Assembly (NCBI GenBank): GCA_964501135.1 | Contig: CAZCRI010000002.1 | Location: 29,644-93,643 of the forward strand | Source: an uncultured Candidatus Saccharibacteria bacterium | GTDB lineage: Bacteria > Patescibacteriota > CPR2 > UBA1875 > CAIMLA01 | Length of the DNA: 64,000 nt | Direction of reading: 5' to 3' | Part shown: positions 8,061 through 32,629 of the stretch, piece by piece | Position numbering within the stretch: position 1 is the first letter of the stretch | How the letters are laid out: each line of letters starts with the position of its first letter | The notes under the pieces: model-generated | Databases searched by the model: none | The model's input: the letters and a program-made list of their open reading frames with translations, nothing else | What the model was told of the DNA's origin: nothing | Made by a program: the position numbers and the translations under genes

Positions 8061-8103
8061 TTATACTATTCTAGCAAGTTATAGTGAAGTCTGGAATATA
8101 CAA

Positions 8104-8132
8104 TTGAAAACTAGATACTAAAATGCTAAAAT
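8104..8132 (+). promoter_or_regulatory. sigma70-like promoter for tRNA-Gln
   Basis: TTGAAA (8104-8109), 17 nt spacer, TAAAAT (8127-8132), ~35 nt upstream of tRNA 5' end. Confidence 0.5.
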
Positions 8133-8166
8133 ATACCCCGTACTAGGCACTATTCGTATTTACTAT

Positions 8167-8241
8167 TGGGGAGTCGCCAAGTGGTAAGGCACCGGTTTTT
8201 GGTACCGGCATTCGGGGGTTCGAGTCCCTCCTCCCCAGCCA
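8167..8241 (+). tRNA. tRNA-Gln (anticodon UUG), CCA encoded
   Basis: Manual fold: acceptor TGGGGAG/CTCCCCA, D-arm GCC..GGC, anticodon stem CCGGT/ACCGG with loop TTTTGGT (anticodon TTG), T-arm GGGGG-TTCGAGT-CCCTC, discriminator G, CCA. Confidence 0.8.
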
Positions 8242-8512: not shown

Positions 8513-9497
8513 ATTTGATCTTATCGAGTATCTCTAGAACATCAGCAAGAGTTCCAACCTTCATCGCTTCTGTACGTATTGTCTTGGCGCCGGGGAAATC
8601 TTTCAAATACCACCCGAGATGTTTGCGCAACTCCCTAATAGCAACCTCTTCACCAAGAGAGCTTACAGCGAGTTTTGCTTGCCGTATGATAATTTCGTTA
8701 ATCTCTGAAGTCGAAGGTGAATATTCTTGCTTCTCCTTTATGGCTCGGAATATCCAGGGATTGCCTAGGGCTCCACGGCCAATCATAACACCAGCTAAAT
8801 GGGATTTTTCGAGCCGCATCCAGGCAGACTTCTGATTTGTGATGTCTCCGTTCCCTATCACGGGTATATTTACGGCTTCGGCGATTTCCTCTATTTTTGT
8901 CCAGTCAGCACTGCCCGAATAACCTTCTTTTGTTGTTCGGCCATGGACAGTAACCGCATCTATACCGATTCGTTCCAGCTCTTGTACGAACGGTAGGACA
9001 TCAAATTCACGCCACCCCAAACGTACCTTTACCGAAAGTGGACCTTTGTAGGCCTTACGAACCGTTTCGGCTATCTTTAGGGCTTTTTCGTAATCGCGCA
9101 GTAATCCTGACCCGCATTCGTTACCGGTAATTTTCGGCGCCGGACAGCCCATATTGATGTCTATCCCGGCGGGATGTAGTTTTGCGTCAATCATTTGTGC
9201 TGCCTGGGCGATAATGTCGCCATCGTAGCCAAATATTTGAACGATTACCGGTTGTTCTGTTTCTAGAAACTCAGCAATCTTAAAAGTTTCGTTTGGATTA
9301 TAAACTATTGCGTTCGAGGAAAGCATTGGGGTAAAAACTACATCAGCACCCATCTCGCGGCAAATGGAGCGAAAAGGCAAGGTTGTAATATTTGCCATTG
9401 GTGCAAGGGCAAATATAGGTTTTTTGATTGTAGACCAAGAGAAAGACAAACTATATTTTCCTGATTTTTTGACCGTTAGCGGTATCTTCGACCTCAT
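8511..9497 (-). CDS. dusB: tRNA-dihydrouridine synthase
   Basis: FALAPMANITTLPFR FMN-binding N-terminus, TIM-barrel Dus family; start uncertain (47-nt overlap with cysS suggests a later start). Confidence 0.75.
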   Translation of the reverse strand: MRSKIPLTVKKSGKYSLSFSWSTIKKPIFALAPMANITTLPFRSICREMGADVVFTPMLSSNAIVYNPNETFKIAEFLETEQPVIVQIFGYDGDIIAQAAQMIDAKLHPAGIDINMGCPAPKITGNECGSGLLRDYEKALKIAETVRKAYKGPLSVKVRLGWREFDVLPFVQELERIGIDAVTVHGRTTKEGYSGSADWTKIEEIAEAVNIPVIGNGDITNQKSAWMRLEKSHLAGVMIGRGALGNPWIFRAIKEKQEYSPSTSEINEIIIRQAKLAVSSLGEEVAIRELRKHLGWYLKDFPGAKTIRTEAMKVGTLADVLEILDKIK

Positions 9498-25656: not shown

Positions 25657-25855
25657 TTTCTCTCCCTCTCCCTTCTGCCATTTTGACCGAAGCGGAGAAA
25701 TCTTTTTAGTGCCTAGGCACCCTTGTCGACCCAATAAAAAATCTTCGATTTCTCGAAGACACATTGGAATAAAATTCATAAAGATTATGCGTTTTACTCC
25801 CTCGGTAGCGGATTAAGCCCTGTGGGCAGCTACTGTCTCCGGAAATTACCTACGT

Positions 25856-25884
25856 ATTTTAGCAAAATATAGCTGTAAGGTCAA
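25856..25884 (-). promoter_or_regulatory. sigma70-like promoter of rplJ-rplL with ~190-nt structured leader
   Basis: minus strand TTGACC (25884-25879), 17 nt spacer, TAAAAT (25861-25856); leader contains hairpins (TCTTCGA/TCGAAGA, GTGCCTAGGCAC palindrome), candidate L10 autoregulatory leader. Confidence 0.5.
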
Positions 25885-25939: not shown

Positions 25940-25960
25940 AGTACCACATGGAACTTGGGC

Positions 25961-26341
25961 CTACTGGAGGCGGAGTTGCAGCTCGTGATTGAACTTGTCC
26001 TTCTCGGACTGCGGCACAGCGTCGTACCAGGCGCTCGTCGCTTCGAAGTAGGAATCGCGCAACTCGGCCGGAATGAGGTCATTGGTACAGATAGCAAGGT
26101 AGAGCTTGCTGCCTCCTACCGTGAGGAGCTTCTCGCTGTCCGGCCGTTCCGGGTTGTCACTTGCCACTGCAAGTGCCTGCGCATCCTGCAGGGCGCTGCG
26201 GAGCTGAGAACGATAGAGCTTGCTGATCGACTCATCGCTGCTCTGCAGGACGTCCGCAGCGAACTCCTCCATAAGCGCGAGAGCACCGCGCTTCTGCGCG
26301 ATCTCAGCTTCGATCTGCTCGGGCTTTCGGCTGTCCGCCAT
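25961..26341 (-). CDS. hypothetical protein (126 aa), GC-rich island gene
   Basis: Start at MADSRKPEQ preceded by AGGAGA SD (6-nt spacer); GC-rich; antisense + ORF is Leu/Arg-rich and looks like a GC artefact. Confidence 0.5.
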   Translation of the reverse strand: MADSRKPEQIEAEIAQKRGALALMEEFAADVLQSSDESISKLYRSQLRSALQDAQALAVASDNPERPDSEKLLTVGGSKLYLAICTNDLIPAELRDSYFEATSAWYDAVPQSEKDKFNHELQLRLQ

Positions 26342-26407
26342 GACGAATCTCCTGTTCCTCAAGGTTTGGATAGGTGGTACTGTGTCTTGCGACGCCTAAA
26401 TATAACA

Positions 26408-26797
26408 TTATTGCTTTGTGTGGTCAAGAAGGGCAGATGAGTACAAAGTCCTCCCTAAGAGCCTATATTTGCCTGAGAGAGCCCTTGCAGCCGCAATTTC
26501 ACTGCGCATTTGTGCAAATTTCAAGTCATTACCCTTACAAAAGAACTCGCGGCAAACCTGGGGTCGCCTAGCATGAATGCTACATTTCTCATTTTCTAAG
26601 TAGAAACAGCTTCCATCACTATTCTGCATAATGATATTTGCACCGCATTCAGTAGCTAAATCAAAATCATCTATAATCTCGAGCTGAGAGAAAGTTGTTT
26701 TGAACTCTCCCGACCGGTATTCTTCTTCGTTCAAGTTTATAAGAAACAGCTGGCAGCAGATGCCGCAAGAATCACATTTATTTGATATTATTTCCAT
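26408..26797 (-). CDS. YkgJ/UPF0153-family putative zinc/iron-chelating protein (CxxCxxCC)
   Basis: CDSCGICCQ motif plus downstream C..C..H..C cluster typical of PF03692. Confidence 0.6.
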   Translation of the reverse strand: MEIISNKCDSCGICCQLFLINLNEEEYRSGEFKTTFSQLEIIDDFDLATECGANIIMQNSDGSCFYLENEKCSIHARRPQVCREFFCKGNDLKFAQMRSEIAAARALSGKYRLLGRTLYSSALLDHTKQ

Positions 26798-26828
26798 CAC
26801 CCCATTCTATCAGTAAACTAGCATATCC

Positions 26829-26857
26829 TTGAAACAATATGTAATAAATGCTATATT
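26829..26857 (+). promoter_or_regulatory. sigma70-like promoter for + strand island gene
   Basis: TTGAAA (26829-26834), 17 nt, TATATT (26852-26857); followed by GGAGG SD at 26892. Confidence 0.5.
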
Positions 26858-26903
26858 ACCTTGTCACTCACCGTGGCAACTTCCAGGGAATGGAGGTGAG
26901 CTT

Positions 26904-27365
26904 GTGGCTCACGAAGAACTTGTAAGGAATATCGATTCTGCAAGAGATAGTTACCTTGAGTGCAAGGCTCGAGGTGACGAACTCACGCGGCAGGCTTGCC
27001 TCGAGTATCAGCAGGCTAACGAACATCTCCGCCTCCAGGCTTACGAGGCAGCGAAGCTGTTTGTCGTCATCATGTCACCATTCATGAGCATCTCAGAGAC
27101 AGAACGAAGTCTCGCATACTTTGTTCATCTCTTCGTCGAAAAGCCACTACCATCGAAGGACGACATCGACCTTCTCTCGGCGACAATTGAGCTCGCAAAG
27201 GCAACTAAACAGGAGCTGCTTGAGGCCGATTTGGCCGCGAGAGGACACGAGTTTCCTCGCCTCAGGACGGTGTTCCACTCTCTATGGGTTGACGAGCCTG
27301 TGGCAGACGACTACGCTATGGCCGTCATGAGGCTTTATCGTAGCGTCGGTTGCCACAAACCCTAG
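26904..27365 (+). CDS. hypothetical protein (153 aa) with own promoter, SD and terminator
   Basis: GTG start 7 nt after GGAGG; the track ORF start at 26829 overlaps the promoter; ends at a strong hairpin terminator. Confidence 0.5.
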   Translation: MAHEELVRNIDSARDSYLECKARGDELTRQACLEYQQANEHLRLQAYEAAKLFVVIMSPFMSISETERSLAYFVHLFVEKPLPSKDDIDLLSATIELAKATKQELLEADLAARGHEFPRLRTVFHSLWVDEPVADDYAMAVMRLYRSVGCHKP

Positions 27366-27431
27366 CGCCCAAAGCGCACGCACTTGTACTCCCGTACGAT
27401 GGCGCTGCACTTTGGGCGCTTTTCGTTATAT
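27364..27431 (+). terminator. intrinsic terminator (11-bp stem + T-tract), possibly bidirectional
   Basis: AGCGCCCAAAG ... CTTTGGGCGCT with inner GTAC-tccc-GTAC hairpin, followed by TTTTCGTTATAT. Confidence 0.65.
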
Positions 27432-27503
27432 AAAAATGGAAGACGCCCCCGCTGCAAAGTACACAACAGGGTTGTCTTCTTTGCCGCAGGGGCGCTGGTT
27501 TGG

Positions 27504-27944
27504 CTACTCTGTAGCCGGGTAATCCAAGCGGGGTGGCGCTCCCAGGTTGCTGAACACTTCCGGTATACTGGCCCCGTGAAGCACCCAGCACGCCAAGGTG
27601 AGATGAAAGCACGGATTCAGATGGGAACAATATCCGTGGCCGTCATCAAAACGATCGAGGTCCAGGAGTCGTGAGATGAGCTCCGCTCGACGCATATGGT
27701 CAAGCGACGTTATGAGTCCCTCGACTCGCGTCATGACACCAACGACCTGGTAGATCTGCGATTCGGCCTTGGCATAGCGGTATTTCGTGGTCACAAGGCG
27801 GATGATACTCCACAGTGGGAGCGCCTCCTGCAGATCAAAGAGCTCCGTTTGTCTTACTCGAAGCTCAAGGAGAAACTGCTCCGCCTTCGCGAGGAAAATC
27901 CGAAGTTGCTCCTCGACTATGGGAAGTTCATTATCGCCTACCAT
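27504..27944 (-). CDS. hypothetical protein (~146 aa), island gene
   Basis: Start at second ATG (MVGDNELP) preceded by GAGAGGGGA SD; upstream TAGACA-17-TATAAT promoter at 28007-27979. Confidence 0.45.
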   Translation of the reverse strand: MVGDNELPIVEEQLRIFLAKAEQFLLELRVRQTELFDLQEALPLWSIIRLVTTKYRYAKAESQIYQVVGVMTRVEGLITSLDHMRRAELISRLLDLDRFDDGHGYCSHLNPCFHLTLACWVLHGASIPEVFSNLGAPPRLDYPATE

Positions 27945-28017
27945 TGCATCCCCTCTCATTGTCGCAACCTATGAGCGAGATTATACGATGAAGTACGTGC
28001 ACTGTCTAGAGAAAACC

Positions 28018-29253
28018 TTAACTATTGCGAAGGGACAAATCGAGTTCCTGTGCCTCGGCGCTAGTAAGGAGCGACATCTCGTTGTAACCGAGTAGGCTAA
28101 GCCCCTCGATATCACGAACTCGTGAAAGCGCCACGTAACCCAAACCATAAGTAAAAGAACGAGAGAGATCGATCTCGGCGTAGTCCAAGGTCATCCCCTG
28201 GCTTTTGTGTATCGTGATTGCCCAGGCTAAGCGTAGGGGAATTTGCTCTATCCAATCGTCGGAGCCAATTTCGTCACTTCCCCATCGCATCGGTGCGGCA
28301 AGGACAGTATCTCCTCTAAAAGTTTCGACAACGGGATAACCAGTATCTATATCAAAATCAGTAACCACCCCAGTGGTTCCGTTAACGTAGTTTTTTGTTG
28401 GGTTGTTAAAGACGAACATTACCACAGCCCCCTTTCTTAGCCTGAGGGTTTCTGGCGCCAAGCAGCCCTTGCGCATTTGAGTGACGATGTAGCCCTCCCC
28501 GCTATCCTTCATCTCGAATAAGTGATCAACCCCTTCTAGGGTATTTAGTCTACTTTCGTTGTAAGTATCAACGTTAGTGTTGTGGGTATACAATTTGGTC
28601 GGAATGACGGTTTCATCAAAAGAAAAGTTTAGCCTCTCACTGAGGAGCCCCACGCTTTCGTCGCTGACTCGCGATTCACGAATTTCATTTAGGATTTTAT
28701 GTAGCGAGTTGTTCTCGGTTTGGCGGTATTGTTTATCCAAATAACAAACATGGAGATTCATTTGCTGCCAAGCAGTGGAGAGATTAACGAAATTACCCCT
28801 ATTCTTTACCTTTGAGACTGGCGGCAATTGAAAGAAATCACCACACAGAACCACCTGAAGGCCGCCAAAGGGGCCCAGTTCGGTCCTTACACGCCGACAA
28901 ATCTCATCCAACAGATCCAGCTGGTAATCATGAAGCATCGAGATTTCATCAATGATAAGGACACTAGCCTCCTGAATTCTCTTTATCGCTGCCTTATTCT
29001 TGGTGAACATCTTCTTTATTTCGGCGGGGGTCATGTGGTCCTTGATTCCCATACCACTCCAAGAGTGGATTGTAGCTCCACCGAGATGGGTTGCTGCGAT
29101 TCCTGTAGAAGCGGTAATCCCAACCTTAATCTGATTCTTGTTTAAATATTGAATAAACTGGTTTAAGAGATAAGTCTTGCCTGTACCTGCTTGACCGGTA
29201 ATTAAAGCGTTTTTACCGCTAACTAGTATTTCAAAAGCTTCTTCTTGTGTCAT
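28018..29253 (-). CDS. PIF1/RecD-family SF1B DNA helicase
   Basis: Walker A GQAGTGKTY, Walker B IIDEISM, motifs ITIHKSQG and YVALSRV; 411 aa. Confidence 0.85.
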   Translation of the reverse strand: MTQEEAFEILVSGKNALITGQAGTGKTYLLNQFIQYLNKNQIKVGITASTGIAATHLGGATIHSWSGMGIKDHMTPAEIKKMFTKNKAAIKRIQEASVLIIDEISMLHDYQLDLLDEICRRVRTELGPFGGLQVVLCGDFFQLPPVSKVKNRGNFVNLSTAWQQMNLHVCYLDKQYRQTENNSLHKILNEIRESRVSDESVGLLSERLNFSFDETVIPTKLYTHNTNVDTYNESRLNTLEGVDHLFEMKDSGEGYIVTQMRKGCLAPETLRLRKGAVVMFVFNNPTKNYVNGTTGVVTDFDIDTGYPVVETFRGDTVLAAPMRWGSDEIGSDDWIEQIPLRLAWAITIHKSQGMTLDYAEIDLSRSFTYGLGYVALSRVRDIEGLSLLGYNEMSLLTSAEAQELDLSLRNS

Positions 29254-29439
29254 TCGTATATTATCCCTGTTTAGACCCCTTAAAACTAGTGGACAAGTTT
29301 CGGCTTCAATCTATAAAAATAGACTGTTCAATACTTAAATTTTCAAGTATAATGCACGTGTTTTGCAGCTTTGGTAGAAAGAACATGGCGACGGCAATTT
29401 GGCAGATAACTCTGCCAAAAGAGATGAAAGGAGTCCGCT

Positions 29440-29586
29440 ATGTGCGGAGAGCTTGCGGCAGGATTCTCGGGCGACATCAGCTGGGTTGGGAGGTGCCAAC
29501 CGGCTCCGGAACTCGACGAGGACGTCCCGAAGGAGACTACGGAGTCTGACACAGAGGATAGCGCAATCGCCACAGAGGGTACCTAG
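29440..29586 (+). CDS. candidate small acidic protein (48 aa) with strong SD
   Basis: GAAAGGAG 6 nt upstream of ATG; upstream TATAAT at 29348-29353; hairpin AGGACG/CGTCCT directly after stop; overlapping alternative frames exist in this GC-rich stretch. Confidence 0.3.
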   Translation: MCGELAAGFSGDISWVGRCQPAPELDEDVPKETTESDTEDSAIATEGT

Positions 29587-29720
29587 GACGGCGCCACGTC
29601 GTCCTAAGCCACCTCTCAGCACCGACGCCTACCCTACTACCATCTACCGTCACCTTGGTGACAATCTGCACAAACTAGGCCGGATCCCTACCATTGGGGC
29701 CCGGCCTTGTGCCTTTTTAC

Positions 29721-30314
29721 CTATTTAGCACCGTAAACCACAAAACCTTGGTGGCGGAGATCTTCTGCCAACTTCTTTTCTGCAATCTGAGCTTCTTCTT
29801 TTGTTTTGAATGCCTTGTAACCCGAATATAGATCTGGTCGCAAAATAGGATTCTCTGCCTTGCGAATCTTTACCGAAGAATTATAGCCCGCAATATGCTG
29901 TACTAGACGGACTTCCGGATCATAAATCGACTGCCCTACATAAACTTTCTTCGGGTTATTATCGAGTTCCACGACATAGATTTGCCAGAAATCTTTCTGC
30001 AGATGAGCACCAGCAATAACTTGGTAATTCTTTTCAGTGAGAACCTCAACCTGCTCTAATACCAGCGCTTTGGCTGCTTCCTCTGTTATGACTGGCATTA
30101 TCTTTGCTGATTTCTCAATCAACATTACTGGTTTCTTGCCGTGTCGGACACTGCGAATAAATTTCTCGAAGCATTTCTGGATATGTTCCTGACTATACTG
30201 AATGAACAGTTTGCGAGAACCTTTGCTTATTTCAAAAATATATACCTGATAGGGAATATTGTCTGGTTTGATTTCTGATATGTTTTTGTTTTCCATGAGG
30301 GCATTGTATCTCAT
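29721..30314 (-). CDS. protein with C-terminal GIY-YIG nuclease-like domain and unknown N-terminal domain
   Basis: QIYVVEL (GIY), 10 aa, KVYVGQS (YIG), PEVRLVQH (R..H), downstream N and E; 197 aa. Confidence 0.55.
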   Translation of the reverse strand: MRYNALMENKNISEIKPDNIPYQVYIFEISKGSRKLFIQYSQEHIQKCFEKFIRSVRHGKKPVMLIEKSAKIMPVITEEAAKALVLEQVEVLTEKNYQVIAGAHLQKDFWQIYVVELDNNPKKVYVGQSIYDPEVRLVQHIAGYNSSVKIRKAENPILRPDLYSGYKAFKTKEEAQIAEKKLAEDLRHQGFVVYGAK

Positions 30315-30352
30315 TTTTGTGCTTAATGACAGGTTTTTATACTCTTACGAAA

Positions 30353-30386
30353 GGAGTCCGCGCCGGAGGCGCTTGGCGCGGACTCC
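30353..30386 (-). terminator. perfect 12-bp GC-rich stem-loop terminator downstream of gene 30427..30744
   Basis: GGAGTCCGCGCC ggaggcgctt GGCGCGGACTCC; minus strand followed by TTTCGTAAGAGTAT. Confidence 0.55.
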
Positions 30387-30426
30387 TTCACGGACTTGTG
30401 CATCAGCTCAAGGCTGAATTCGTTGG

Positions 30427-30744
30427 CTACAGACAGAACTTCTCCGGAACATTGAAACGGAAGGGGGTGAATTCCCTCTTCGGACCAGGACGATAGTACC
30501 CAGTGCAAGGACTCTCGTCCTCCGCTTCAATGAGAACGTAGATCTCCCGCCCCCGTAGCTGCTTCTTGAGAAACTCCAGAACGGGGCCTATCCTGCCTCG
30601 TGTGCCTTTGGGTTTGTAGTAGAGGCAGAAATAGAACAAACCCTGGTAGCGCCTCAGGACGACCTCGCCATTCACCCACTGGCGAACGATTTCGGTAGCT
30701 TCCTCTGGTGTTAGAGGACGGTTCTGGGTCTTCTTTTTTGCCAT
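30427..30744 (-). CDS. hypothetical basic protein (105 aa)
   Basis: GAGGGG SD 4-5 nt upstream of ATG; dedicated terminator; no recognisable family. Confidence 0.5.
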   Translation of the reverse strand: MAKKKTQNRPLTPEEATEIVRQWVNGEVVLRRYQGLFYFCLYYKPKGTRGRIGPVLEFLKKQLRGREIYVLIEAEDESPCTGYYRPGPKREFTPFRFNVPEKFCL

Positions 30745-30964
30745 GTTTCCCCTCTCAGCGTATGGGAATACTACAACGAATATACACGGATCCCACTTCT
30801 ATGGCCCGTGAAATACACGTAAACTACTTAGGTGCACCTGGTATATTCTTTACAAACACAGGATTAGATATCTTAGTACAGAATTGTTGCAAAAACAAGT
30901 AAAAGATAAGTGCCCGCCTCCTACGGGACTCATCATTAGGGTCCGGGAAACGGGCACTGGGTCC

Positions 30965-31291
30965 CTAGGAGACCAGGGCGGCAGCGATGAAGGCGAGCAA
31001 CTCGCTCGGCTTGGACGTGTGTACGTGGACTTCCTGAAGGCCACTCGGCCGACGGTCGATAACCTTCACTCCCAGGACGGGAGCGTCCTTGCCCGGCGTG
31101 CAACCGCGAAGTTCAGTGGCCCTGCGAAATGGCCTTGCCGGACGCATCGGCTTCTCGGTAGGCTTGGCACTCTTGTGCGTAATGCGCGCGTCCGGGTCAG
31201 GGCAATCCTCGTGTGCAAGGATTGCTGTCACGTCGCCGAGAAGTGGAAAGACCTTCTCGCTGTGCTTCTCGCGCTGAGATTGTGTCGACAT
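30965..31291 (-). CDS. hypothetical protein (108 aa), GC-rich
   Basis: GGGGAG SD 5 nt upstream of ATG; TTGCAT-18-TATAAT promoter at 31416-31387 on minus strand. Confidence 0.45.
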   Translation of the reverse strand: MSTQSQREKHSEKVFPLLGDVTAILAHEDCPDPDARITHKSAKPTEKPMRPARPFRRATELRGCTPGKDAPVLGVKVIDRRPSGLQEVHVHTSKPSELLAFIAAALVS

Positions 31292-31421
31292 TCGTTCTCC
31301 CCTGTCGATGTCTACAAGATGGAAAGACTACCAATACTCCTTTCAACATGATGCAATCGCATCCTGGAATTCCGTAGAATGCTAAGATTATATTCCTAGG
31401 GTAAGGCCAAATGCAAGGCCT

Positions 31422-32440: not shown

Positions 32441-32597
32441 TTAATAATCAAAATATCTCTTTCCACTGAAAGAGATAAGGTCGACCTTTCCTATTAGGAC
32501 TTATCGCTCCACTCACGTGGCTAGCATTAGCACCCTACTTGTCTTGGGGTTGCCGGCAGGTCATTGGGCTAGTTCCCTATCTGCGCTCTCGATATAT
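32441..32597 (-). promoter_or_regulatory. SAM-I (S-box) riboswitch with terminator/antiterminator expression platform in the metK leader
   Basis: Minus strand reads AUAUCGAGAG-CGCAGAUAGGGAACUAGCCCAAUGACCUGCCGGCAACC-...-GGGUGCUAAUGC-UAGCCACGUGAGUGG-AGCGAUAAG, matching SAM-I core elements (UAUCGAGAG, AGGGA..GCCC.AUGA, CCGGCAACC, GGUGCUAAU, P1 GAUAAG); downstream CUUAUC antiterminator partner overlaps terminator ATCTCTTTC/GAAAGAGAT (32455-32476) + U-tract, 15 nt before the metK ATG. Confidence 0.7.
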
Positions 32598-32629
32598 TTG
32601 ATTGTACTAAAATTATATAGGCTAACCCC

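Follow-up and report, generated by a model that had tools for sequence, protein, structure and literature searches.

Do a helicase gene and a nuclease gene that lie close together on a Patescibacteria chromosome form a defence or mobile-element module, or are they neighbours without a common function? The question is raised by a stretch of 64,000 nucleotides (nt) from an uncultured Candidatus Saccharibacteria bacterium (the window), in which a Pif1-family helicase gene is found near a gene whose product ends in a GIY-YIG nuclease domain. The initial annotation had proposed these two genes, together with a small basic protein, as a candidate module within a compositionally foreign island. The three open reading frames (ORFs) concerned, of 411, 197 and 105 amino acids (aa), are all present on the minus strand. 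In our assessment, the adjacency of helicase and nuclease is probably an accident of this lineage, and the nuclease would be an accessory enzyme that stands by itself, with two GIY-YIG domains in tandem and an ancestry in restriction or defence. The two focal genes are:

28018–29253, minus strand: Pif1-family superfamily 1B (SF1B) DNA helicase, 411 aa, recognised by Pfam PF05970, PHROG and alignment with 6hph
29721–30314, minus strand: GIY-YIG protein of tandem architecture, 197 aa (191 aa from M7 at 30296, the start in public gene calls)

The identification of the helicase as a PIF1 SF1B enzyme was confirmed. The 411-aa protein matches Pfam PIF1 (PF05970) with an E-value of 6.3e-40 and 137.6 bits (cutoff 25.9), and the human PIF1 core (6hph) is collinear with it from end to end (residues 7–396, E 1.8e-67). 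Further matches were obtained with Bacteroides Pif1 (E 2.4e-49), with the Dda-like helicase family of PHROG (E 2.8e-70) and with a 2B domain. The protein contains the Walker A motif GQAGTGKT (residues 20–27), the Walker B motif DEISM and the Pif1 signature motif DLLDEICRRVRTELGPFGGLQ at about residues 113–133, in register with the human DKLEAVARAVRQQNKPFGGIQ. With a profile score above the curated threshold, full-length collinearity, both Walker motifs and the signature motif, the sequence places the protein in the Pif1 family, and ATP-dependent 5'→3' unwinding is predicted. The helicase core and its motifs are shared over the full length with the human (6hph), yeast (5o6b) and Bacteroides (5fhd/5ftb) members. 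At 411 aa, the window protein corresponds to the minimal bacterial Pif1 core, and it differs from these members in carrying no accessory N- or C-terminal domains and in having, within its clade, a conserved neighbour that encodes a CxxCxxCC protein.

The GIY-YIG assignment of the second protein was also upheld, with a Pfam PF01541 match over residues 110–187 (E 1.1e-8, 35.7 bits, gathering score 22.6) and a modelled fold that agrees with it. The N-terminal domain, which had been described as unknown, was identified as a second, degenerate copy of the same domain:

29997–30257, minus strand: N-terminal half, residues 20–106, degenerate GIY-YIG copy according to hhalign, BLASTP and AlphaFold2
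29724–29996, minus strand: C-terminal half, residues 107–197, intact predicted GIY-YIG catalytic domain according to Pfam and conserved residues

Profile–profile comparison of the two halves with hhalign, based on an alignment of 17 members, gave a probability of 98.4% and an E-value of 1e-14 over 83 columns. The halves are also collinear over their whole length in BLASTP (E 0.045, as a single comparison), the hidden Markov model of the C-terminal half detects the N-terminal half in several relatives, and the beta-beta-alpha-alpha-alpha-beta order occurs twice in the AlphaFold2 model. In the C-terminal half, Y113, Y125, G127, R136, H140 and E179 vary little or not at all among the 17 sequences, and no equivalent conservation was observed in the N-terminal half. 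The latter lacks the G of the YIG element and the conserved R, H and E residues, so the N-terminal copy is predicted to be inactive. The profile match between the halves, combined with catalytic columns restricted to the C-terminal half, indicates a single-chain pseudo-dimer with one predicted active site.

The profile score, the catalytic residues of the C-terminal half and the alpha/beta fold place the protein within the GIY-YIG superfamily. Compared with I-TevI, the UvrC N-domain and SLX1, it adds the degenerate second copy in the same chain and has no recognised DNA-binding or partner domain. Its best structural match is the catalytic domain of I-TevI, and a viral structure library returned homing endonucleases, all as single-domain matches; a sequence search of the PDB with the family profile gave no significant solved structure. 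A full-text literature search of limited extent found no description of tandem or duplicated GIY-YIG domains. A 2006 survey of the superfamily describes the domain as poor at forming stable dimers and mentions no tandem architecture (PMC1564403).

Close relatives of this nuclease are rare. Among 5.8 billion proteins, 4 clusters reach at least 55% identity to the nuclease, whereas for the helicase the same database contains approximately 27 clusters with an identity of 69% or higher. At E<1e-50, a minimum of 8000 helicase homologues was counted, many of which are named from Patescibacteria. Both genes were found together, within metK...rplJ synteny, in L001/L002/L008 (Patescibacteria group bacterium JTS-AC303; 78–81% identity) and in L003/L004/L005 (nuclease identity 78%). 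The genes between nuclease and Pif1 are not the same in these loci: L001 has a DUF4352 protein and a 57-aa gene at this place, L004 three small genes (101, 85 and 110 aa). A scan of genome contigs with the nuclease alignment returned a single relative, the one already known from Patescibacteria JTS-AC303, and a scan of metagenome contigs yielded three weak or short loci. The initial annotation had itself named the absence of conserved co-occurrence elsewhere as refuting a helicase–nuclease module, and the co-occurrence we observed is confined to three closely related, syntenic genomes; the proposal is thus not sustained.

The two genes evolve under constraint in these genomes. Identity to the L001 and L004 orthologues is 87% and 77% for Pif1, 90% and 76% for metK, and 94% and 68% for rplJ, which corresponds to a similar pace of divergence. 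For Pif1, the nonsynonymous substitution rate (dN) is 0.09 and the synonymous rate (dS) is saturated, consistent with strong purifying selection. The nuclease shows a dN of 0.12 with saturated dS relative to L001, also a sign of purifying selection. The gene has kept its place since the three genomes diverged, with dS saturated and dN low, which points to vertical inheritance.

A different neighbour was found to accompany the helicase. Pif1 orthologues at 71–73% identity were inspected in three independent genomes (L017, L018/19 and L020/21), over ±10 kb of each, and the pairs observed there are listed after the corresponding gene of the window:

26408–26800, minus strand: CxxCxxCC protein (PF03692, YkgJ-type putative Zn/Fe-chelating), 130 aa, Pfam E 3e-9
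L017, 10001–11804: Pif1–CxxCxxCC pair with one small ORF between
L018, 10001–11573: Pif1–CxxCxxCC pair with an 8-nt overlap
L020, 10001–12236: Pif1–CxxCxxCC pair in which the CxxCxxCC gene starts approximately 630 nt further on, past a 55-aa ORF

In these three genomes, the CxxCxxCC gene lies just 3' of Pif1 and its product is 56–65% identical to the 130-aa ORF of the window; tblastn detected no GIY-YIG homologue within the same ±10 kb. Together with the window, L001 and L004, the gene was observed 3' of Pif1 in 6 of the 6 clade genomes inspected. The orthologues of L001, L004, L017, L018/19 and L020/21 are 55–65% identical, and their distance from Pif1 ranges from the 8-nt overlap to approximately 1.2 kb. 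The pair is followed by rarA/mgsA in L017 and L018/19, and preceded by dprA-topA in the same genomes and by topA only in L020. GC-rich ORFs split Pif1 from the CxxCxxCC gene in the window, L001 and L004. L022, a locus of another lineage with a 54% identical Pif1 homologue, has neither a GIY-YIG gene (±6 kb) nor a CxxCxxCC neighbour. A full-text literature search combining Pif1 and CxxCxxCC terms found no paper. The Pif1 neighbourhoods, the divergence resembling that of metK and rplJ, and the purifying selection lead us to conclude that the helicase gene is chromosomal, widespread and inherited vertically, and that it has the CxxCxxCC protein as its conserved partner instead of the nuclease. 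Accessory function, which had been suggested for the locus as a whole, fits the nuclease; the helicase is an ordinary chromosomal gene.

Transcription signals around the nuclease gene also separate it from the helicase. The following features were identified:

29668–29712, no strand assigned: GC-rich hairpin just past the GIY-YIG stop codon, followed on the plus strand by CCUUUUUA (U-run), from the terminator scan
29440–29586, plus strand: acidic 48-aa ORF (MCGELAAGF..., MCGELAAGFSGDISWVGRCQP...) with the strong Shine-Dalgarno sequence AAAGGAG 6 nt upstream, between the GIY-YIG gene and Pif1
30351–30388, minus strand: perfect 14-bp hairpin followed by UUUCGU, predicted terminator of the 105-aa gene, which it separates from the GIY-YIG gene

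The spacer between nuclease and helicase measures 467 base pairs (bp) and holds both the first of these hairpins and the conserved, convergent 48-aa gene. The hairpin folds strongly, with -32.6 kcal/mol on one strand and -36.3 kcal/mol on the other (z about -4.8), its region is 80% conserved with L001 11318–11390, and it is a predicted bidirectional terminator between convergent genes. The N-terminus of the 48-aa ORF aligns with the 57-aa gene of L001 (11429–11602, minus strand), which has the same position and orientation. Given the predicted terminator and the convergent gene, the GIY-YIG gene and Pif1 would not be co-transcribed and are predicted to belong to separate transcription units. 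Since the GIY-YIG and 48-aa genes converge on the terminator, transcription of Pif1 would have to start in the AT-rich sequence, 190 bp long, that lies 5' of the gene.

Additional signals were observed in this part of the locus. Approximately 80 nt of GC-rich hairpins and the bidirectional terminator come after the 48-aa ORF. On the minus strand, TACAAT ends 6 nt before the ATG at 30296 of the GIY-YIG gene (30296–30340) and TAATAT ends 4 nt before the ATG at 29253 of Pif1 (29254–29275), in both cases with no Shine-Dalgarno (SD) sequence; such -10-like boxes directly 5' of the two starts are compatible with leaderless mRNAs. A longer plus-strand ORF at 29399–29728 was rejected as coding, as its frame crosses the TAG stop of the 48-aa ORF that it contains (ATG at 29440).

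What the nuclease might do was addressed through its distant relatives. A profile search of 1.84 billion representatives recovered 539 relatives at E<=1e-3; the best 150 of the 539 comprise 25 tandem proteins and 60 single-domain proteins of approximately 93 aa, and the rest have other N-terminal regions. No Pif1 gene was found near the distant relatives in L006, L009, L012, L013, L015 and L016. Of 6 independent distant contexts, 5 contain restriction-modification (R-M) or defence genes. GmrSD occurs in two of them, and type III Mod/Res, an HNH helicase resembling DpdF and an R-M-associated partner gene were also observed. In L006, the nuclease relative (55% identity) has an acetyltransferase and GmrSD as neighbours. 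The surroundings in L012 include a 1443-aa Mokosh-like helicase, type III Mod and Res, another GIY-YIG gene and GmrSD. L015 encodes a T5orf172-ResIII protein downstream of the relative, and L009 has trigger factor upstream and an unknown gene downstream.

In L013/L014 and L016, a gene for a 324–326-aa protein is translationally coupled to the tandem GIY-YIG gene, whose start it overlaps by 4 bases (1132–1135 in L013), and in L013 a DpdF-like HNH-DEAD helicase comes next (2e-99). The members of this partner family of 280–326 aa are:

L013, 155–1135: partner-family gene
L016, 1466–2440: partner-family gene
L024, 5037–5885: partner-family gene
L025, 5031–5870: partner-family gene

The 324–326-aa partner matches the PADLOC model MTase_II (E 4e-80) and no Pfam, NCBIfam or PDB entry. 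Its plasmid homologues (41.6% identity), annotated in RefSeq as 'restriction endonuclease', precede a 1410-aa Eco57I-type methylase, and the plasmids with this arrangement come from Enterococcus and Pediococcus. The partner is R-M-associated. No homologue of the 326-aa form was detected in the window by tblastn, and Pfam and NCBIfam identified no methyltransferase domain among the ORFs of 25.9–31.4 kb. Given the R-M and defence surroundings of its distant relatives, the most likely ancestor of the nuclease is a restriction-type or defence nuclease, and it may still act as one. As there is no adjacent methyltransferase, a modification-dependent or nicking activity appears the most plausible. 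From the neighbourhoods of these relatives, we infer that a defence function may apply to the window protein as well.

The argument from a foreign island was examined through composition and marks of mobility. Two ordinary cis-regulators bound the variable stretch, one at each side:

32498–32598, minus strand: S-adenosylmethionine (SAM) riboswitch, 5' of metK
25727–25860, minus strand: L10 leader, 5' of rplJ, from Rfam

The GC content of the region is indeed raised (0.47–0.54, compared with about 0.43–0.45 elsewhere), and this part of the earlier description stands. The median GC content at third codon positions (GC3) is 0.435 over 64 non-overlapping ORFs of the window, and in the whole 64 kb, values above 0.53 are restricted to ORFs within 25955–31351, namely those of 133, 178, 151, 105 and 108 aa. 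These five small ORFs (GC3 0.54–0.77) are interleaved with host-like genes. GC3 is 0.49 in Pif1, 0.41 in the GIY-YIG gene and 0.43 in the CxxCxxCC gene, all near the window median. The GC anomaly therefore belongs to the five small ORFs, and neither focal gene is compositionally foreign; with host-like GC3 in both, the argument from a foreign island does not apply to helicase or nuclease.

No integrase or transposase domain was detected among the ORFs of the stretch (Pfam, PHROGs, NCBIfam), no tRNA lies near it (the sole tRNA of the window is at 8167), and no flanking repeats were found around it; the candidate of a repeat-bounded island was rejected on the result of the repeat search. Each ORF of 25.9–31.4 kb has an orthologue in L001, in identical order, which argues that the stretch is not a recent insertion. 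The boundaries expected of a mobile element or genomic island (integrase, tRNA or repeat) are thus missing, and L001 retains all ORFs. Searches of phage and plasmid collections and of IMG/VR returned no nuclease relative, and neither the nuclease nor P0019 matched phage or plasmid sequences in tblastn. Viral contig scans with the 105-, 108- and 151-aa ORFs also found no relatives, and the proposal of a mobile-element module was abandoned. Among known RNAs, Rfam (gathering score and E<=1) identified the L10 leader only in 25.8–31.45 kb, which means that the 467-bp and 677-bp 'gaps' hold no known RNA.

Comparison with described systems sets the nuclease apart from several groups of GIY-YIG enzymes. 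Type II R-M enzymes of the GIY-YIG class (R.Eco29kI, 3mx4; R.Hpy188I) have an adjacent methyltransferase, which the window lacks, and GIY-YIG restriction enzymes are homo-oligomers, whereas the window protein would contain an internal pseudo-dimer. PD-T4-3/CMoRE (9u75), a type IV enzyme, has a GIYxY motif, an autoinhibitory acidic loop and, at its C-terminus, a domain that senses modification (PMC12923530). The window protein differs from it in its QIYVVEL motif without the third Tyr, in the reversed order with the active domain at the C-terminus, and in the lack of both the acidic loop and an extra sensing domain, so that the likeness is limited to the nuclease fold. With respect to free-standing GIY-YIG homing endonucleases, no NUMOD, IENR1 or helix-turn-helix (HTH) module was recognised by Pfam, and the phage, plasmid and IMG/VR collections gave no match.

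The helicase–nuclease systems covered by PADLOC and DefenseFinder (such as Hachiman, Gabija, Nhi, Mokosh and Dpd) are alike in having a helicase gene near a nuclease gene. In PADLOC, the helicase of the window gave only generic P-loop and RecD-like matches, and the nuclease and the small ORFs gave none; the PADLOC, PHROGs and NCBIfam scans of nine regional ORFs returned nothing specific except for the helicase. Matches to component models, predicted co-transcription or tight linkage, and co-occurrence across unrelated genomes are all lacking. No named helicase–nuclease defence system fits the locus; the initial annotation did not recognise the combination as a named system either.

The remaining explanations were weighed against the preferred one, a chance neighbourhood of two unrelated genes. 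A lineage-specific anti-phage or mobile-element replication/homing module, in which detection or unwinding of foreign DNA would fall to the helicase and its cleavage to the nuclease, would account for the same-strand closeness kept in three related genomes, for distant nuclease relatives in defence islands (two of them beside other helicases) and for the generic match of Pif1 to helicase components of PADLOC candidate systems. However, the helicases beside the distant relatives are SF2 DEAD/ResIII enzymes and not Pif1, a predicted terminator and a convergent gene separate the pair, and the intervening gene content differs among relatives. Moreover, the Pif1 orthologues of L017–L021 and L022 occur without the nuclease, with L017–L021 keeping the other partner. 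The nuclease and the small proteins drew no match from PADLOC, and the integrase, tRNA, flanking repeats and phage or plasmid relatives of the nuclease expected of a mobile unit were not found; we regard such a module as very unlikely. A free-standing homing endonuclease or selfish gene, inserted beside a DNA-metabolism gene in the manner of T4 Seg and Mob and now partly domesticated, is equally improbable. Its very patchy distribution (the four close clusters), the stand-alone predicted transcription unit beside a conserved helicase gene, and the structural matches to I-TevI and viral homing endonucleases speak for it. These are countered by the lack of a NUMOD, IENR1 or HTH module and the C-terminal active domain, by the absence of homologues in phage and IMG/VR collections, by relatives that reside in R-M and defence loci rather than in introns or phages, and by a locus shared by three genomes with saturated dS and low dN. 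Somewhat less improbable, yet still unlikely, is a nickase with a housekeeping role, structure-specific or in repair, like UvrC or Slx1; it would act in the replication and repair processes that Pif1 serves, and so be loosely co-located with Pif1 and part of no system. Host-like codon usage, purifying selection, the position of Pif1 among dprA, topA and rarA in sister lineages, and the lack of the adjacent methyltransferase that an unregulated restriction enzyme would require are all consistent with it, but the family is far too rare for such a role, most genomes with an orthologous Pif1 lack the nuclease, 5 of 6 distant contexts are R-M or defence, and Pfam shows no Slx4-type or UvrB-binding partner domains.

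Several observations weigh against the reading of an accidental neighbourhood and a stand-alone enzyme of restriction or defence ancestry. Pif1 lies 0.5–1.5 kb from the nuclease in the same orientation in all three genomes with the close form (window, L001, L003/4), and because these genomes are few and non-independent, a functional link specific to this lineage could exist. The absence of GIY-YIG genes near the Pif1 orthologues at 71–73% identity refers to three genomes and to ±10 kb of each only. Read-through of the predicted terminator between the two genes is possible. The contigs with distant GIY-YIG relatives are mostly short (3–14 kb), and for their R-M-associated partner, the methyltransferase and endonuclease labels conflict. 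Finally, the AlphaFold2 model was built from a 4-sequence alignment and reached a predicted local distance difference test (pLDDT) score of 82, with 3 of 5 models below 60.

The preferred account of the locus can be outlined as follows. The stretch from the rplJ leader to metK would be a chromosomal segment of Patescibacteria (Candidate Phyla Radiation, CPR), conserved at approximately the genus level yet plastic, and would hold at least two functional units without relation, the Pif1 helicase and the tandem GIY-YIG nuclease gene. The first unit would be a housekeeping Pif1 5'→3' helicase, with a small metal-binding protein of the CxxCxxCC type as its conserved genomic partner. In sister lineages, the two occur in a DNA-metabolism neighbourhood (dprA-topA ... 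Pif1-CxxCxxCC-rarA), and in the lineage of the window, GC-rich small ORFs would have come to separate Pif1 from the CxxCxxCC gene. The second unit would be an accessory gene, transcribed on its own, whose product combines the tandem GIY-YIG nuclease in a single chain. Its C-terminal domain, with the Tyr/Tyr/Arg/His/Glu set, is predicted to cut DNA, and the degenerate N-terminal domain may be an internal partner without catalytic activity that helps to bind or position DNA and stands in for the dimer partner required by GIY-YIG restriction enzymes.

The segment also contains the following small ORFs and hairpins:

30427–30744, minus strand: 105-aa basic protein, isoelectric point (pI) 9.6, GC3 0.65, own predicted transcription unit, GAGGGG SD-like box upstream of the ATG
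30965–31291, minus strand: conserved 108-aa ORF, GC3 0.71, dN/dS 0.10
27504–27959, minus strand: 151-aa ORF, GC3 0.62, between Pif1 and the CxxCxxCC gene, 49% to the L001 orthologue
26829–27365, plus strand: GC-rich ORF of 178 aa that converges on the 151-aa ORF, 43% to the L001 orthologue
27366–27418 and 27444–27494: two strong hairpins between the 178- and 151-aa ORFs, fold z -5.8 and -6.5
25961–26362, minus strand: 133-aa ORF, GC3 0.77, flanked by the CxxCxxCC gene and the L10 leader, 49% to the L001 orthologue

The description of the 105-aa protein as basic, with an SD sequence and a predicted terminator of its own, was borne out; its gene had been said to follow the GIY-YIG gene and lies upstream of it on the coding strand. 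A sequence search of the PDB with this protein gave nothing significant. The 108-aa ORF shows 90% amino-acid identity in L001, compared with 66% for the opposite-strand ORF, and L020 holds a 48% identical homologue. The plus-strand ORF at 30884–31351 was rejected as coding because the opposite strand is better conserved. The dS values of the 105- and 108-aa genes (0.57–0.65) are below those of metK (1.78) and rplJ (1.03), and those of Pif1 and the GIY-YIG gene are saturated. No family match was obtained for the 151-aa ORF in Pfam, PADLOC, PHROGs or NCBIfam.

The terminator hairpin of 30351–30388 is carried twice in L001, at about 8103–8184 and 9284–9333. One copy lies past the orthologue of the 105-aa gene and the other past a 335-aa gene, and only the 335-aa gene is bracketed by the copies. 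This 335-aa gene and a 156-aa gene downstream of the second hairpin copy are absent from the window. The arrangement hints that recombination at such hairpins drives the gain and loss of genes in the region.

The helicase–nuclease pair is therefore unsuited as a candidate defence system, as the proximity of the two genes fails comparative genomics. The finding as first framed is ordinary, and the tandem GIY-YIG architecture is a modest novelty. The steady pairing of Pif1 with the CxxCxxCC protein in one clade of Patescibacteria suggests that the latter may be an accessory, metal-binding factor for bacterial Pif1. On the side of the nuclease, a rare tandem GIY-YIG family with one dead and one live predicted domain occurs in restriction and defence neighbourhoods. 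We tentatively raise the idea, for which the odds are less than even, that these proteins form a class of GIY-YIG nucleases as yet undescribed: pseudo-dimers within one chain that act as effectors of restriction or defence, some of them coupled to an R-M partner and others stand-alone, presumably as modification-dependent enzymes or nickases. If true, covalent duplication would solve the difficulty of GIY-YIG domains in forming stable dimers. If active, the tandem protein would add an internal pseudo-dimer to a superfamily poor at dimerising and could yield a compact nicking or modification-dependent enzyme.

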